A stretch of DNA of 64,000 bases, from NCBI GenBank assembly GCA_048882645.1, contig JBHLRJ010000003.1, positions 2,409 through 66,408 of the forward strand, given 5' to 3'. Each line of letters opens with the position of its first letter. The first letter of the stretch is position 1. A program made the position numbers and the translations under genes. The notes beneath the pieces are model-generated. The model did no database searches, had not been told where the DNA came from, and saw only the letters and a list, made by a program, of their open reading frames with translations. Of this stretch, positions 31,608-38,432 are shown in pieces. The stretch comes from Candidatus Thorarchaeota archaeon (lineage in GTDB: Archaea > Asgardarchaeota > Lokiarchaeia > Sigyniarchaeales > SOKP01).

Positions 31608-31979
31608 ATGCTATTTCAATTAGAAAATTTACTTTCCTATTTTCTATCATATTTACCGATAATTATCTATTTAGGATTCGATATAGCGCTGTTTATTATC
31701 GCCATCTTCATCTATAAAAGAAATTCATATAAATATGGGCTATATTTAATGATTTCTTCAATTATTTCTATCGCTTCAAGTATTCTCTTTATTTCTCTTA
31801 ATTATCCATTTCTAGTTTATGAACTGGTGAGTCGGGGGCTCTCTATGGTTGAAATCTCAATCATTCTAATGATACTCAATCTTGTCTCACTTATCCTCGG
31901 TACTACCAGTGCAGTATTCTTATTCCTCGCAGTGTATAAGATCTATCAAACTCATAAAAAGGATAGAATTAAGGATTAA
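31608..31979 (+). CDS. small membrane protein, paralogue of 36212-36601
   Basis: Four TM helices. Shares MLFQ...YLP.I.Y..FDIA..I...FI.K.NS.KYGLYL and the C-terminal YKIYQTHKK with 36212-36601. Confidence 0.5.
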   Translation: MLFQLENLLSYFLSYLPIIIYLGFDIALFIIAIFIYKRNSYKYGLYLMISSIISIASSILFISLNYPFLVYELVSRGLSMVEISIILMILNLVSLILGTTSAVFLFLAVYKIYQTHKKDRIKD

Positions 31980-31988
31980 AATTATAAT

Positions 31989-33638
31989 TTATGAAATATC
32001 TTCATTAATAGATTTTAATACTAATTTGAAAATACTTCCTTTTCCAAATTTACTGTTTACAGATAAATCTCCCCCAAGGAGATTCGCTAATTTCTTAGAG
32101 AGATGAAGTCCTAAACCACTTCCCTCTTTAGTTCTCCCTGGTTCAATAATCTGACTAAATGGTTTAAATAATTTATGTACATCCTCCTCTTTTATACCTA
32201 ACCCCGTATCTTTCACTAAAATCTCTGAAATCCCATTCTTTTGTTTTACTACAACAGAAATTTTTCCTTTCTCTGTAAATTTTATTGCATTTCCAATAAG
32301 ATTTGTTAAAATTTGATTTATACGCTGCTTATCATTGTAAATAATAAAAGGTTCAGGAGAATCTATAAGTAACTTAAGTCCTTTCCCATTTAATGCTACA
32401 CTAAACGTCTCCTTTAACCTTTTTAGTTCCTCTACGAGATCAAATTTATCTTTTCTTATAGTTAATTTTTTTGCATCTATTTTAGTTATATCAAGGATGT
32501 CATTTATCAAACCAAGCAACCTATTAGAATTATTTAATATAATATTAAGTTGGTTTTCTTGTTCTTCATTTAAAGCCCCAATTTTACCATTCAATAGCAT
32601 TCCTGTAAACCCAATGATTGAAGTTAGTGGTGTTTTTAATTCATGACTTATACTCGCTAAAAAAGTAACTTTTTGCGGTCTCGTGAACATCTCTAAAAAA
32701 TCAGTCTCGATATCATCATCAATATGCATTCCTTGAGTTACAGAAATTCTTTCAGTTCTTATTTCTCTTATTACAAGAAAAAACAGAATATATACATATA
32801 ATGTAGCTCCTATGAATTCCAGTATAAAAATAAAATTTAGTTCATTAAAGATATCAATAATTAGGATACTAAAAAGTAAGGGTATAGTTAAAATCGCAAA
32901 AAAAATCCAATATTTCAACGCACCAGAAAGAGCTTTAGGATTAATTATTATTGGCACTATGGTAAAACAACAACCTATAATTAAAACAAGTGGACTTAAG
33001 AATAATGGAAAAACATCAAGTAATTTATGAGCTCTCTTTGCTAAATTCAATGATATCATGAATAAAATAAACCCAAATAAAAGAAATGAAGATACGGCTT
33101 TAAACTCAAGATGAGACCATTTTGTATAGAAATATAATATAAGTGGAACAGAAAAAATTAAGCCGGGTAGTAATAAGTAATTAAATAAATTTCTTGTTAT
33201 ATTAAAAGGAAAAACAAACTCTATAACAATTATTAATAAGAAACTTATACTGAGAAGATATTTCGTGCGTTTTACGATGATCTCAAAAGCCAAAATAAAG
33301 ACTAATCCTCCGATTCCTAGTGAAATATAACTCAATCTGCCAAAAATTTCATATAGAAAACTTTCTCCATTATAAACACCGCAAAATGTCAAGGAATCGT
33401 AATTAAAATATCCTGAAATTTGAAAACTTTGAAATAAGGTAAATAAAAGAGCCAAAGCAAAACCTAAAGGCAAGCTTCCTAGTCCTAACATTATAATCTG
33501 TTCATTAAAAATTTCCCTTTTTTTCCCTATACGTAAAAAATATATTCCACATATTAGAGCTATCGCGATTGCAATCCCCCATAAAAATATTTCAAAGGGA
33601 TCCCAAATCATCACCACTGTGTCTCCAGGACATGCCAT
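31989..33638 (-). CDS. membrane-bound sensor histidine kinase
   Basis: About 10 N-terminal TM helices. H-box SISHELKTPLTSI, N-box LIGNAIKFT, G1 DTGLGI, G2 GSGLGL. Confidence 0.85.
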   Translation of the reverse strand: MACPGDTVVMIWDPFEIFLWGIAIAIALICGIYFLRIGKKREIFNEQIIMLGLGSLPLGFALALLFTLFQSFQISGYFNYDSLTFCGVYNGESFLYEIFGRLSYISLGIGGLVFILAFEIIVKRTKYLLSISFLLIIVIEFVFPFNITRNLFNYLLLPGLIFSVPLILYFYTKWSHLEFKAVSSFLLFGFILFMISLNLAKRAHKLLDVFPLFLSPLVLIIGCCFTIVPIIINPKALSGALKYWIFFAILTIPLLFSILIIDIFNELNFIFILEFIGATLYVYILFFLVIREIRTERISVTQGMHIDDDIETDFLEMFTRPQKVTFLASISHELKTPLTSIIGFTGMLLNGKIGALNEEQENQLNIILNNSNRLLGLINDILDITKIDAKKLTIRKDKFDLVEELKRLKETFSVALNGKGLKLLIDSPEPFIIYNDKQRINQILTNLIGNAIKFTEKGKISVVVKQKNGISEILVKDTGLGIKEEDVHKLFKPFSQIIEPGRTKEGSGLGLHLSKKLANLLGGDLSVNSKFGKGSIFKLVLKSINEDIS

Positions 33639-33744
33639 AGATTCTTCCTCTCTTTACTAAAGAGATCTCATTTTTTTTCCATATTTATGTTATATTTAAA
33701 TTTAATAAAAACATAAATATCAAAGTTATTCACGAGGGAGATAT

Positions 33745-34629
33745 ATGATACCCTTAATATTATTAGTTGAAGATGATCCAAACATCTTAAAATATCTAAA
33801 AATGACATTAGAACTTAACGAATGTAAAATTGTTAGTGCAATCAACGGTAAAGAGGGACTAAAAGTACTTTCGGAGTTAAAAAATTGCCCTGATCTCATT
33901 ATAAGTGATATTATGATGCCAGAAATGAATGGTTATGACTTTTTCAATGCTGTTTCCCGCAATCCAAACTATTATCATGTGCCATTCCTTTTTTTATCTG
34001 CTCTAGATTCCACTGAAGATATCCGATTTGGAAAAATGTTAGGAGTAGATGATTATATTACTAAACCCATAAATGAAAAAGATTTTCTAGCAGTGGTATT
34101 TGGGAAAATTAAACGTAGCAAAACTATTGACTCAATTAGTGAAAAGTTGAATGAGATTTATACATCATATGAAATTGAAAAAGCAACCATTCCTGAAAAA
34201 CTTAAAGACTTAATGATTTTAGTTGAGGTACACTGGAATGATATTGTAGGCCCACAAATAATAAGATACTTTCCCACTGATTTAGAATTAGATTTCCCAC
34301 TAAGTGCTGTTAGTGAACAACTTTACGATGGATCAATAGCCATGTATGGACAAGAACACATATTAAATGCCGAAGGACTTTTGATAAACATCAAGAACTT
34401 TAACATAATGGCATATGTGTTTTTTGATTCGTATCCAGACGATTATTATAGAGGTGGAAGAAAGAATTACATGTTTTCACTGATTTCTTCAAAAATAACA
34501 TATTTTCAGTCATTGAAAATAAAACAGATTTTTATGAACCTTTCATCAATCTTCAAAAAGTATGGGAAATGGGATATAAAAGAGTTTTGGATGAAATTTT
34601 CAGAGATTCTTGTAAAACCTTCAATTTAA
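33745..34629 (+). CDS. response regulator (REC) with a non-DNA-binding, longin/uDENN-like C-terminal domain
   Basis: REC motifs LLVEDDP, DLIISDIMMPEMNG, LSALD and DDYITKP. The C-terminal ~145 aa (34192-34629) contains VGPQIIRYFP ... YMFSLISSKITYFQSLKIKQIF, with no HTH. Confidence 0.8.
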   Translation: MIPLILLVEDDPNILKYLKMTLELNECKIVSAINGKEGLKVLSELKNCPDLIISDIMMPEMNGYDFFNAVSRNPNYYHVPFLFLSALDSTEDIRFGKMLGVDDYITKPINEKDFLAVVFGKIKRSKTIDSISEKLNEIYTSYEIEKATIPEKLKDLMILVEVHWNDIVGPQIIRYFPTDLELDFPLSAVSEQLYDGSIAMYGQEHILNAEGLLINIKNFNIMAYVFFDSYPDDYYRGGRKNYMFSLISSKITYFQSLKIKQIFMNLSSIFKKYGKWDIKEFWMKFSEILVKPSI

Positions 34630-34697
34630 ATAAAATCATTACTTCCATACAATAAATATATAGAAAATTCAAGTAGAAAAAAGAGATGAAATAATTA

Positions 34698-35249
34698 ATG
34701 GGTGCGGAAAATGAAGATTTACCTATAAAACTTGTAATTATGGGTATGGAGAATGCTGGAAAAACCACAATTTTAGATGTACTTACAGGAAAAATTAAAG
34801 AGCCACTCCGTAAACCACCAAGTATGAATCCAACTAAAAATGTTGAAAGAAGTACCATTTTATTTTTTCAGAAGGAAACGAAGGTTTGGGATTTTGGTGG
34901 ACAGGAGGTATATCGTAATGAATACATAGCACATCCTGAGAAATATTTTCACTCAATTTCGTTTTTCTATTACGTTGTCGATATCCAAGATTACTACAGA
35001 CTCTTCCCTTCCGTTATGTATTTTAAAGGAATATTTAATAAGATCAAAAACTATAGCCCTGAAGCTAAAATCATTTTCCTTTTCCATAAATCAGACCCTG
35101 ATTATGCTGCGGATGAAAGAGACTTAAAGGGACAGTTCTTAGAAAAGATTATACCTGAATTAAACTTGACAAATACACCATATATAATATATGATACTAC
35201 AATTTTTGATATAAAGAGTATAAAAATTGCCTTTGGTTTGGAATCATAG
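34698..35249 (+). CDS. Arf/Arl-like small GTPase
   Basis: G1 GMENAGKTT, G3 WDFGGQ (Arf-family hallmark), G4 HKSD. Confidence 0.75.
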   Translation: MGAENEDLPIKLVIMGMENAGKTTILDVLTGKIKEPLRKPPSMNPTKNVERSTILFFQKETKVWDFGGQEVYRNEYIAHPEKYFHSISFFYYVVDIQDYYRLFPSVMYFKGIFNKIKNYSPEAKIIFLFHKSDPDYAADERDLKGQFLEKIIPELNLTNTPYIIYDTTIFDIKSIKIAFGLES

Positions 35250-35307
35250 CTATTAAACAAAGAAATTTATAATTATCATTAGATAGCAGAAATTTCTGTT
35301 ATTGAAG

Positions 35308-35976
35308 TTAATTTAAAGGAGTATTACAGTTTGGACATCTTTTTAAATCAGCGTTAATTTTATTTCCGCAATACTGGCAAAACACTACGCCTTCTTTTTC
35401 TACTCTTTTTATTGAGGTAGGTGTTCGTGGCTTTTTAATATAGTCATGCGATTTTCGTCTAGCTTTCAGTAATAGGATTATTAAACCAAAAATTAAGATC
35501 AATACTGTAGGTACTATTAGAACTAATAGATATGTACCATTAAAGAATTCAATATTTGGACCTGTCGCAGGACTTGTTATTCCTGTATTTACACCAATAT
35601 CAAAAAATCCTGAACCAGAATTAACCCCAATTTGAACATAATAATCCCTAGTTCGAGGTGCAGTAAAATGCATAGTTTCTCCAGAGTAAGACGAAACATC
35701 AACTTCTGTGCCCGTTATCATATAAGGCGTTTCACTTATTTTTATTGCCAGGTCCATATCCCAAAAAGAATCTACATTAATATAAATCGTGTATTGTTGA
35801 CCTCCCTCCAAACTTATAACATATTTTTTTGGTAATTCAAAACCCCACGCATGTTCCGCTATTTCAAGAGTATTAAGTGATAACCTTTTAGGAAACACAT
35901 ATGGCATCGTAGTTGTAAATGCCAAAGGAATCAGGGAAATAATTATTATTAATAAAATTGATTTGTACTTTTTCAT
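35308..35976 (-). CDS. secreted/membrane-anchored protein with a cytoplasmic C-terminal zinc ribbon
   Basis: N-terminal signal-like helix, beta-rich ectodomain, TM (LLVLIVPTVLILIFGLIILLL), then CQYCG-x10-CPNC. Confidence 0.55.
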   Translation of the reverse strand: MKKYKSILLIIIISLIPLAFTTTMPYVFPKRLSLNTLEIAEHAWGFELPKKYVISLEGGQQYTIYINVDSFWDMDLAIKISETPYMITGTEVDVSSYSGETMHFTAPRTRDYYVQIGVNSGSGFFDIGVNTGITSPATGPNIEFFNGTYLLVLIVPTVLILIFGLIILLLKARRKSHDYIKKPRTPTSIKRVEKEGVVFCQYCGNKINADLKRCPNCNTPLN

Positions 35977-36211
35977 TGATCTAAGATTTTACGAACTAAT
36001 GCATATGGAATTAAATTTAGTATGATTAGTATGATTATTTTCAAATAAAAATATTGATATCAATTCTTTTAATATCTTCGAAAAAAAAGGAGAATATCCA
36101 TTCTTAATTCTGAATAATAGAAATGAATTTTGATAACAAAATTTAAAATAAAATGATCACAAGATAAGATATTGTATTCAACCATTAATCCAGACTATTC
36201 AAAATATAAAA

Positions 36212-36601
36212 ATGCTCTTTCAGACTTTTGATTTTTTATTGTATATTATGACATATCTCCCAGCGATAATGTATTCTAGCTTCGATATAGCCATACTCAT
36301 TTTCGGAGTCTTCATTAAAAAGAAAAATTCGTTTAAATATGGACTTTATTTAATAATCGCATCGATAGTTTCATTACTATCAACTATTATATATTATTCG
36401 ATCTACTATCCACTCTTAGTCTCTGATATAAGTAATAATCCCTTTCAGCCACCGGCTCCTCAAGATATTATGATACAATTAATTCTCTTAATCTGTAATC
36501 TCCTCTTTTTAGGTCTAGGAATTAGTAATGAAATTCTGTTGGTCCTCGCTTTTTATAAGATATATCAAACTCATAAAAAAATCAAAAAAACACGTGAATG
36601 A
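36212..36601 (+). CDS. small membrane protein, paralogue of 31608-31979
   Basis: See 31608-31979. Confidence 0.5.
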   Translation: MLFQTFDFLLYIMTYLPAIMYSSFDIAILIFGVFIKKKNSFKYGLYLIIASIVSLLSTIIYYSIYYPLLVSDISNNPFQPPAPQDIMIQLILLICNLLFLGLGISNEILLVLAFYKIYQTHKKIKKTRE

Positions 36602-37601: not shown

Positions 37602-38432
37602 TTAACACCAGTTTTTATAAATCTTTTCAATTTTCGTTGCGATATTGTTCGCAGTAATTTCACACATTCCTAATGGAACCGTGGCAGAATAAAGAAGGAT
37701 TAAGAATTCTTGGTTGACAATTTCTTTTGTAACAACCTTATCACCATTTTTTAGCACATATATCATAAGAGGAAGATCCAAATATCCTAATTGAAGTCTA
37801 ATGTCCAATTCTTTTAATGTACGTGATAATAATTTCTCTGATAATGTAGAGTATATACTAGTTCCTGTGACAGATAATAACGCCGCTCCTAAAAATTCAT
37901 CTTCATGGATTAAATCATCAAGCAAGTTTTCAACTTGTTTATAGTAGTCTTTATAACTATCGATTTCCCAATTACCTAATATAATTGAATCAATTATAGT
38001 GTCTAGTTCATCACTATGGAACACGGCCGTATCCAATGAGGTTAAATTATCTTTATAAACATTACAAAAATGTGTCATTATCATAAGTAAACTGTCTTTC
38101 AAGAAAACATTATTTTCATCAATATCTGCTATAGTAGCAAAAATGAGATTTTCCTTAATATCGTCTAAATCTTTACTAGAAATAAATACTAATTTCACAT
38201 TTGCCATCTCAAGCACTTCTATTTTTTCTGAAGTTACCTCTTCCGCAAATGAAGAAAACGCTGCGAAAAAATTAGTTACTAAATCAATATCCAATTTTTC
38301 AAATTTACTGGAAAAATTCCTATTGTAAATACAAGTACCATTCTCTTTTAGAATGAAAAAAGAATGGATTTTCCGTTTAACAATTTTTAAGATTTCATTC
38401 ACTTTTTTAAACCTACTTTTCTTGAAATTCAA
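37602..38432 (-). CDS. longin-like + roadblock/LC7-like two-domain protein (putative GTPase regulator)
   Basis: N-terminal half FFILKENGTCIYNRNF...LVTNFFAAFSSFAEEV (longin/SNARE-like pattern). C-terminal half GAALLSVTGTSIYSTL...LLYSATVPLGM (roadblock/MglB-like pattern). Motif-level only. Confidence 0.4.
   Translation of the reverse strand: MNFKKSRFKKVNEILKIVKRKIHSFFILKENGTCIYNRNFSSKFEKLDIDLVTNFFAAFSSFAEEVTSEKIEVLEMANVKLVFISSKDLDDIKENLIFATIADIDENNVFLKDSLLMIMTHFCNVYKDNLTSLDTAVFHSDELDTIIDSIILGNWEIDSYKDYYKQVENLLDDLIHEDEFLGAALLSVTGTSIYSTLSEKLLSRTLKELDIRLQLGYLDLPLMIYVLKNGDKVVTKEIVNQEFLILLYSATVPLGMCEITANNIATKIEKIYKNWC

Follow-up and report, generated by a model that had tools for sequence, protein, structure and literature searches.

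Longin-domain proteins that act as GTPase-activating proteins (GAPs) for Rag GTPases, such as GATOR1 and folliculin, are central to eukaryotic nutrient signalling, and their Asgard origin has been traced via structure and motifs only. GATOR1 (NPRL2-NPRL3-DEPDC5) serves RagA/B, while FLCN-FNIP and Lst4-Lst7 serve RagC/D and Gtr2. A GP motif in the beta1-beta2 turn together with an arginine finger has been described as the signature of the eukaryotic GAP longins (FLCN, NPRL2, SMCR8/C9orf72) and of some Asgard longins, and the same study posed the question on which Asgard GTPases such GAP-type longins act (PMC12290439). Asgard GTPases can seldom be matched to their regulators by gene order (PMC10933270). 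The locus described here is an exception. It lies in a stretch of 64,000 nucleotides (the window) from a Candidatus Thorarchaeota archaeon (GenBank assembly GCA_048882645.1, contig JBHLRJ010000003.1, positions 2,409 to 66,408) and forms a three-gene cassette in which a longin with GP motif and Arg, the output domain of a response regulator, has a single Rag-like GTPase orthogroup as its fixed neighbour in several Asgard classes, together with a histidine kinase.

A connection between such longins and two-component signalling has been made before. Liu et al. (10.1101/2020.10.19.343400, Fig. 5c) show Asgard fusions of an NPRL2-like longin to two-component domains, and the text of this preprint, in the part consulted, proposes an Asgard growth regulation centred on two-component systems with 'eukaryotic' regulators and places most eukaryotic-signature genes outside conserved neighbourhoods. 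As far as they are described there, these fusions are the same protein class as our regulator: the REC-longin, HisKA-HATPase-REC-longin and HATPase-longin architectures reported below match their description. Therefore, both the architecture of the regulator and the general idea were already known from these fusions and the growth-control proposal. However, the consulted preprint text deals with fusions only and names no client GTPase, whereas in our data the Rag-like GTPase orthogroup is a fixed neighbour. In the portions consulted of the preprint, of Asgard GTPase papers and of the longin-GAP survey we did not find such a neighbour described. New here is the named candidate client GTPase as fixed partner of the REC-longin regulator.

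Two bacterial systems are similar to some extent. The actinobacterial conservon (CvnA histidine kinase, CvnB roadblock/MglB-like protein, CvnC, CvnD small GTPase) also combines a kinase, a roadblock/longin protein and a Ras-superfamily GTPase (PMC4316618, PMC13343842). It has no receiver but possesses CvnC (DUF742), a GTPase of the MglA group and a stand-alone roadblock regulator, whereas the cassette has a REC-longin fusion and a Rag-like GTPase. An assignment of the cassette to the conservons was considered and rejected, because a CvnC-like gene is absent, REC is present in the regulator and the GTPase is of the Rag-like kind; the two are similar in outline only. In Myxococcus, according to the parts consulted of three papers, receiver-domain outputs (RomR, FrzX/FrzZ) likewise act on a small GTPase and a roadblock-fold GAP, MglA and MglB (PMC3441718, PMC6785124, PMC13408092). 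There, in contrast, the output of RomR is Pro-rich/Glu-rich and not a longin, MglB is a separate protein, the GTPase is of the MglA type and no fixed three-gene cassette exists. With the fusions of Liu et al. (10.1101/2020.10.19.343400), the conservons and the Frz-RomR-MglA/B circuit (PMC4316618) as precedents, the original prediction, which was made from the letters of the window, went too far in calling a coupling of prokaryotic and eukaryote-like signalling 'not well described'.

Gene organization of the cassette

The cassette comprises the following features, given in window coordinates with their strand (aa, amino acids):

31989-33638, minus strand: sensor histidine kinase, 549 aa, polytopic N-terminus followed by HisKA and HATPase_c
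33639-33744, no strand: divergent kinase-regulator intergenic region, 106 bp, GC 0.23
33745-34629, plus strand: response regulator, 294 aa, receiver and longin output
33745-34119, plus strand: receiver (REC) domain, regulator residues 1-125, Pfam Response_reg
34120-34191, plus strand: regulator linker, a long helix and then a low-confidence stretch in the AlphaFold2 (AF2) model
34192-34629, plus strand: regulator output domain, residues 150-294, longin fold according to AF2 and Foldseek
34630-34697, no strand: regulator-GTPase spacer, 68 bp, AT-rich
34698-35249, plus strand: Rag/Gtr-like small GTPase, 183 aa, G domain only

All six open reading frames (ORFs) of the original prediction, these three genes and three flanking ones treated in the last section, are present at their coordinates. 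The short gap it noted between regulator and GTPase is also real, but measured from the regulator stop codon it is 68 bp long and not 69 bp. The GC content is 30.5% for the window and 29-32% for the cassette genes, with no break in composition. The conserved unit consists only of the histidine kinase, the response regulator and the GTPase, a three-gene signalling cassette.

Conservation of the cassette among Asgard archaea

Metagenome-assembled genomes with the labels Promethearchaeota (Asgard), Lokiarchaeota, Hermod-, Hod-, Thor-, Odin- and Helarchaeota contain full-length homologues of the regulator, with REC and the same C-terminal domain; the closest of them is 97% identical. For the analysis of synteny, 87 loci were taken from contig look-ups of regulator homologues and from a metagenome scan with the longin domain alone, and were scored by tblastn and phmmer; regulators with a longin domain at least 55% identical constitute the orthologous subfamily. 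A profile scan of genome contigs with the full-length regulator alignment gave bacterial REC proteins only, the generic receiver motif dominating. All numbers are counts of contigs and not of independent events, and near-duplicates (L082/L083, L111/L112) are included.

In 29 of the 31 evaluable orthologous contigs a GTPase orthologue (54-85% identical) starts downstream of the regulator at a distance of no more than 450 bp, in 20 cases co-directionally and in 9 convergently. The two contigs without this adjacency, L095 and L096, do not encode regulators but GTPase-longin fusions, and among the regulator orthologues with downstream sequence the GTPase is adjacent in 29 out of 29. Divergently upstream of the regulator a kinase is encoded in 18 out of 25 evaluable orthologous contigs, usually with the orthologous polytopic domain. 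Searching reciprocally from GTPase orthologues on long contigs, we found an adjoining REC-longin gene in three out of four; the sole exception is the most divergent GTPase (51% identity). The cassette loci agree in assemblies labelled Loki, Hod, Odin and Thor.

The paralogous subfamily of regulators (38-47% identity) has another gene order. In 18 of 32 contigs a kinase precedes the regulator co-directionally, and a more distant Rag-like GTPase lies beyond the kinase in 11 of the 22 contigs with enough flank, which gives the order GTPase(+/-)-kinase-regulator. Four contigs of this subfamily (L131, L141, L147, L148) carry a 145-aa roadblock/longin-like gene beside the GTPase, and a motif scan for extra divergent GTPases downstream detected one only (L137). 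Taken together, the association of regulator and GTPase holds in two gene orders, two orientations and several Asgard classes. The original prediction had named a lack of synteny in relatives as an outcome that would speak against it; instead, the adjacency is kept across Asgard lineages (29/31).

At L084:7073-8007 (Helarchaeota) the regulator is followed by an uncharacterised ORF of 137 aa and then by a 167-aa Arf/Ras-type GTPase, which is 24% identical to that of the window. Upstream there are genes for receivers and a number of hybrid kinases. The arrangement appears to be a third version of this wiring, in which the GTPase belongs to another class.

The output domain of the response regulator

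The C-terminal half of the regulator has no Pfam match. At E <= 10, Pfam gave no usable match for 25 members of the output-domain family, and a profile of the domain gave no match among the PDB sequences. With 25 homologues as input, AF2 modelled residues 150-294 at high confidence (pLDDT 87.5, pTM 0.84), and the model has the element order beta-beta-alpha-beta-beta-beta-alpha-alpha (E8-16, E20-27, H37-52, E63-67, E72-82, E90-99, H104-124, H129-141 in model numbering). When this model was compared with the PDB by Foldseek, the first 14 matches were all subunits of Rag-GAP, KICSTOR or DENN complexes, and the chains among them with known identity are longin-domain proteins. Four are chains of GATOR1 complexes (9v0j_A, E 4.8e-5; 9o5d_D; 9o5a_H; 7t3b_B) with 362-370 modelled residues, which were assigned to NPRL2 by chain length and PDB entry lists, and one is a KICSTOR-complex chain (9van_D). 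Other matches are yeast SEA-complex subunits including Npr2 (8adl_S), FLCN-FNIP2 (6ulg), DENND10 and the Lst4 longin domain. The named longin matches (NPRL2/Npr2, FLCN-FNIP2, Lst4, DENND10) have E-values from 4.8e-5 to 1.4e-2 and probabilities of 0.87-1.0; PAS/LOV-like folds rank beneath them at lower probability. With the model of the full-length regulator, Foldseek returned REC structures only (up to E 1.5e-11). As modelled, the output domain has longin topology.

The beta1-beta2 turn contains the motif W164-x-D166-x-x-G169-P170, and R236 is located in the beta4-beta5 loop. Scored over 86 distinct relatives of 38-100% identity, these residues are kept as follows: W164 in 84/84, D166 in 84/85, G169 and P170 each in 85/85 and R236 in 86/86. 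In a weak hhalign alignment G169-P170 fall on G20-P21 of NPRL2, the regulator segment WND-IVGPQI standing opposite FHPTLGPKI. The polypeptide stops at the longin domain and has no C-terminal DENN or NPRL2-C domain. Because it ends there and has no Pfam match above the cut-off, the output domain is a longin of the NPRL2/FLCN structural class and not an orthologue of NPRL2 or FLCN. The expectation of a non-DNA-binding output was borne out in this way, the output being a GTPase-regulator fold, an NPRL2/FLCN-type longin. Since the profile of the domain finds only 259 representative clusters among 1.84 billion proteins, the family is compact, and all named homologues are from Asgard archaea.

A Rag-like GTPase

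The GTPase had been taken for an Arf-like protein, but this cannot be maintained. Its top Pfam family is Gtr1_RagA with 66.3 bits, followed by Arf with 55.1 bits (above the cut-off), and the best PDB match is 'LokiRagM' (8zla), a monomeric Rag-like small GTPase from Asgard Lokiarchaeota (E 4.4e-29, 105 bits). Further matches are 8yl2 (E 1e-23) as well as Gtr1 and RagA (about 3e-11), and the best Arf structure reaches 36.8 bits. The motifs are G1 GMENAGKT, switch-I T46, G3 WDFGGQ, G4 HKSD and G5 TTIFD. In the alignments, LFHKSD of G4 corresponds to LLHKMD of Gtr1 and LVHKMD of RagA, and DTTIFD of G5 to PTSIWD of Gtr1; thus G4 has the HKxD form and not the NKxD form expected of an Arf. WDFGGQ is common to this GTPase and Arf. 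The residues K22, T23, T46, Q69 in switch II and K131 are invariant across 25 distinct orthologues.

A C-terminal roadblock domain is absent from the 183-aa protein: of the 232 profile positions the Pfam match spans 1-162, and in the PDB matches only the G domains of the 307-313-aa Rags are aligned. Because this heterodimerisation domain is lacking, the protein is called Rag-like and not a true Rag; judged by its sequence it is neither a bona fide Rag nor an Arf. About nine residues precede the P-loop strand, with no hydrophobic segment, and an N-terminal amphipathic helix was assessed by eye only. LokiRagM (PDB 8zla/9m28) and 8yl2 are the closest solved relatives and have the HKxDP and TxIY/F motifs in common with it. 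Their chains, however, comprise 385 and 342 residues with extra domain(s), whereas the protein studied here is a bare G domain. In a literature search no paper on the PDB entries 8zla, 8yl2, 9m28 or on 'LokiRagM' was found.

Members of this GTPase family (P0391 etc.) are publicly annotated as 'ADP-ribosylation factor-like' or 'SAR1 family', which is misleading for the orthogroup. The 68-bp spacer between regulator and GTPase contains the TATA-like sequence AAATATATA and no T-run.

Histidine kinase and receiver

The N-terminal domain of the kinase comprises about 300 aa with some 9-10 transmembrane (TM) segments and belongs to no known family (hydropathy, Pfam). HisKA (E 1e-20, 73.9 bits) and HATPase_c (E 1.5e-23, 83.7 bits) both exceed the Pfam cut-offs, and the translation shows the H-box SHELKTPL as well as NLIGNAIKFT, DTGLGI and GSGLGL. 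By these domains the protein is a HisKA-type two-component kinase with intact phospho-acceptor and catalytic domains. In the orthologues the TM part is 49-63% identical, and TM and catalytic parts are both found divergently upstream of the regulator.

Pfam Response_reg covers residues 5-118 of the regulator (E 7.7e-23, 81.2 bits). The acidic pair D10/D11, the phospho-acceptor D55, S85 and K107 are present, and D55 is conserved in 74 out of 77 relatives, K107 in 73 out of 79. By these residues the domain qualifies as a receiver, with acidic pocket, phospho-acceptor Asp, conserved Ser and Lys. In the AF2 model of the full-length regulator the last REC helix is prolonged into a long helix (model residues 111-141), and residues 141-150 have low confidence. 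Public annotations list this family (P0001, P0022, P0024 etc.) under the name 'PleD family two-component system response regulator', which is misleading for proteins without GGDEF.

In one clade of regulator orthologues the receiver Lys is replaced by Ile, which changes TKP to TIP (L085, L086, L107, L110, L113, L114). The regulator alignment reveals the same change in P0046, P0059, P0064, P0065, P0072, P0078 and P0084, and a few members of this K107I clade are also without the phospho-acceptor Asp (N or A instead). Where the upstream sequence suffices, no kinase is found upstream in this clade; L085 and L086 have a TPR/HTH protein there. The longin motifs are kept in all members and the GTPase neighbour in five of the six loci, L107 having too little downstream sequence. 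The receivers of the K107I clade are probably pseudo-receivers.

In the middle of the kinase-regulator intergenic region, at 33681-33720, there is a near-perfect palindrome of 20+20 nt without spacer and with 85% complementarity (ATATTTATGTTATATTTAAA/TTTAATAAAAACATAAATAT). It could be a shared operator, a pair of TATA boxes or a chance feature in DNA of 23% GC.

Domain fusions of the longin

The same longin is fused to further domains. L095:1113-2249 (Ga0114921_10038737) and L096:14-1150 (Ga0209991_10066364) encode a 378-aa protein with a Ras-family domain (Pfam Ras, E 1e-30) in place of REC, in which longin and linker are 74% and 69% identical to those of the window. A Ras-longin fusion is also found in P0122 and an Arf-longin fusion in P0158. 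Other architectures are a hybrid kinase with HisKA-HATPase-REC-longin (P0166, P0167) and HATPase-longin (P0250), and the longin is also fused to the non-GTPase sensor modules RsbRD_N (P0131) and DUF1638 (P0132). The fusions to small GTPase domains represent Rosetta-stone evidence of physical cooperation with such GTPases, and the fusions to sensor modules indicate that the domain is used as a signalling output. The G motifs of the L095/L096/P0122 type are degenerate-looking (GDSGIGKEN for GK[ST], WNFSGEE for DxxGQ, NKSK for NKxD), and the Ras-longin protein may be a pseudo-GTPase.

Proposed mechanism and alternatives

As an explanation of the whole cassette, a phosphorelay-gated longin GAP that acts on the neighbouring Rag-like GTPase appears to us just on the probable side. 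The membrane-embedded kinase would sense a signal, probably a membrane-associated one, and would phosphorylate D55 of the regulator. The longin output would bind the neighbouring monomeric GTPase and act as its GAP, the invariant R236 serving as arginine finger beside the GP turn, which is likewise invariant. Once phosphorylated, the receiver would switch the activity of the longin on or off, plausibly via dimerisation through the long linker helix, and the kinase input would thereby be turned into the GTP/GDP state of the GTPase. The physical longin-GTPase interaction, the GAP direction and the effect of phosphorylation are what we infer. That a phosphorelay feeds into a small GTPase is an inference well founded on synteny, the divergent kinase and the GTPase-regulator fold; this part of the original prediction stands (29/31 synteny, 18/25 kinase, longin output), but its label of the GTPase as Arf-like was wrong. 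A GAP is favoured because the nearest folds are GAP-class longins, the motif pair is invariant and the GTPase keeps the catalytic Gln. With a Rag-type G domain and the switch-II Gln retained, the GTPase should be able to use an arginine finger supplied in trans.

Several points weigh against this mechanism. In eukaryotes a GAP longin functions as a heterodimer whose partner is another longin protein, and DENN or other domains are involved as well; within the cassette there is no second longin gene. Many longin proteins are guanine nucleotide exchange factors (GEFs) or scaffolds rather than GAPs. The local hhalign alignment with the metazoan NPRL2 longin covers 119 columns but is weak (P 0.0023, probability 12.7%), and in it R236 aligns one residue off NPRL2 R78, the arginine-finger position that corresponds to R164 of FLCN; against a single NPRL2 sequence the probability was 2%, and the global mode gave no usable alignment. 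Searches with Pfam NPR2 (PF06218) and Folliculin (PF11704) gave nothing above the cut-off, Folliculin reaching E 0.012 in one out of 25 members. The nine convergent arrangements and the TATA-like box in the spacer indicate that co-transcription is not required. Furthermore, since the K107I clade with its partial loss of D55 has no kinase and keeps the GTPase, control by phosphorylation is not universal: the longin-GTPase pairing persists throughout, and some lineages can do without the phosphorelay input.

The main rival is that the longin binds the neighbouring GTPase not as GAP but as GEF or as nucleotide-state-specific effector or scaffold, which is possible but in our view rather unlikely. 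Synteny and fusions fit such a role as well as that of a GAP, DENND10 from the Rab-GEF DENN family is among the top structural matches, and precedents exist in the longin GEFs DENN, TRAPP and Mon1-Ccz1 and in RomR/RomX with MglA. In general, most longin-based GTPase regulators are GEFs or platforms (PMC10933270), and the re-assignment of RomRX from GEF to MglA-GTP effector, as given in the consulted part of the report, indicates how uncertain such roles are (PMC13408092). However, the best structural matches are the GAP-class proteins NPRL2, FLCN/FNIP2 and Lst4, and GP turn plus invariant Arg is the reported signature of GAP longins. The adjacency could also reflect shared regulation or a shared process only, the longin acting elsewhere (membrane, SNARE-like partner, other longin/roadblock protein) and the GTPase being controlled separately. 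We consider this improbable. Although GTPase genes of MK-D1 are generally outside operons with roadblock/longin genes (PMC10933270), the GTPase may own a promoter and is convergent in 9 loci, and the longin occurs fused to the non-GTPase modules RsbRD_N and DUF1638, the adjacency survives inversion and the different gene order of the paralogous subfamily and is complete (29/29) where downstream sequence is available. Mere co-regulation is also made less likely by the independent fusions of the longin to two kinds of small GTPase domain, which argue for direct coupling. Finally, the whole 5-kb block might be one unit in which the flanking membrane and zinc-ribbon proteins are anchors or targets of the GTPase. 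The layout is the same in the window and in a 97%-identical strain, and no membrane anchor is obvious in the GTPase itself, but the three flank genes are not beside the cassette in 87 loci, including relatives of ~79% identity, and the block edges show no repeats or signs of mobile elements; this idea is largely refuted by synteny and very improbable.

Compared with the Rag-GAP complexes, the phosphorelay-gated longin GAP proposed here has a similar output-domain fold, the GP turn and a conserved Arg in the beta4-beta5 loop, which the weak profile alignment puts one residue away from R78 of NPRL2. Its client would have a G domain of the Rag type, with an HKxD and a TSIWD-like motif. In contrast to these complexes, the cassette is without a second longin subunit, a DENN or NPRL2 C-terminal domain, DEPDC5, Ragulator and TOR kinase. 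It further differs from the eukaryotic Rag axis by a GTPase without roadblock dimerisation domain and by a His-Asp phosphorelay instead of amino-acid sensors as input, and from eukaryotic longin GAPs by an output domain whose sequence similarity lies under the family thresholds. Tentatively, and with more doubt than confidence, we suggest that the cassette may be a minimal archaeal counterpart of the Rag-GATOR1/FLCN axis, namely a one-polypeptide longin GAP of a monomeric Rag-like GTPase, gated by His-Asp phosphorylation. If this is true, a natural client of the 'GAP-type' Asgard longins has been named, which is the question raised in PMC12290439, and the pairing of longin GAP and Rag is older than the eukaryotes, two-component sensing standing where nutrient sensors later sit. 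The cassette would then document a working junction of prokaryotic His-Asp signalling and eukaryote-type GTPase switching. Owing to the fixed partner, the pairing of regulator and GTPase can be tested directly; the three proteins are small and soluble or truncatable.

Flanking genes

The cassette is flanked by three further genes:

31608-31979, plus strand: small membrane protein A, 123 aa, 3-4 hydrophobic segments, paralogue of B
35308-35976, minus strand: signal/TM protein with C-terminal zinc ribbon, 222 aa
36212-36601, plus strand: small membrane protein B, 129 aa, paralogue of A

Proteins A and B are 48% identical over 123 residues (E 7e-35), far beyond chance, and the shared motifs MLFQ, FDIA, KYGLYL and YKIYQTHKK, from which their paralogy had been predicted, are all seen in the alignment. 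In the 222-aa protein a hydrophobic segment at the N-terminus and a TM segment at 150-168 precede a C-terminal CxxC...CxxC; its match to Zn_Ribbon_1 (E 2.6e-4) is below the Pfam cut-off. These three genes stand beside the cassette only in the contig L168 of a near-identical (97%) strain, and no homologues of them were found next to it among the 87 related loci. In the next-closest relatives (~79% regulator identity) an isochorismatase-like gene and unrelated genes occupy the flank positions. With this distribution, the paralogue 'bracket' and the zinc-ribbon gene had to be dropped as parts of the system. The bracket does exist, but as a local feature of this genome, and the flanking genes lie outside the conserved system. 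A mobile cassette or a segmental duplication was considered as well and rejected, as the only DNA repeats are short AT-rich matches of the kind that arise by chance, and neither tRNA genes nor a GC anomaly were found.

An orthologue of A is present at L168:1646-2017 (GCA_048940205.1, JBHLOT010000208.1) as an intact ORF of 123 aa, 95% identical, which is missing from the listed called genes. Small membrane genes of the A/B family are probably under-annotated.

An ORF of 276 aa (37602-38432, minus strand), located 2.4 kb downstream of the GTPase, belongs to no Pfam family. An orthologue of 59% identity is found two genes upstream of the regulator in L114 (2441-3283). The protein is weakly similar (14-17 bits) to the 145-aa roadblock/longin-like proteins of L131, L141, L147 and L148, and also weakly to the C-terminal domain of a second REC protein in L111 (3423-4487)/L112. 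Its role may be that of an accessory GTPase regulator with loose linkage.

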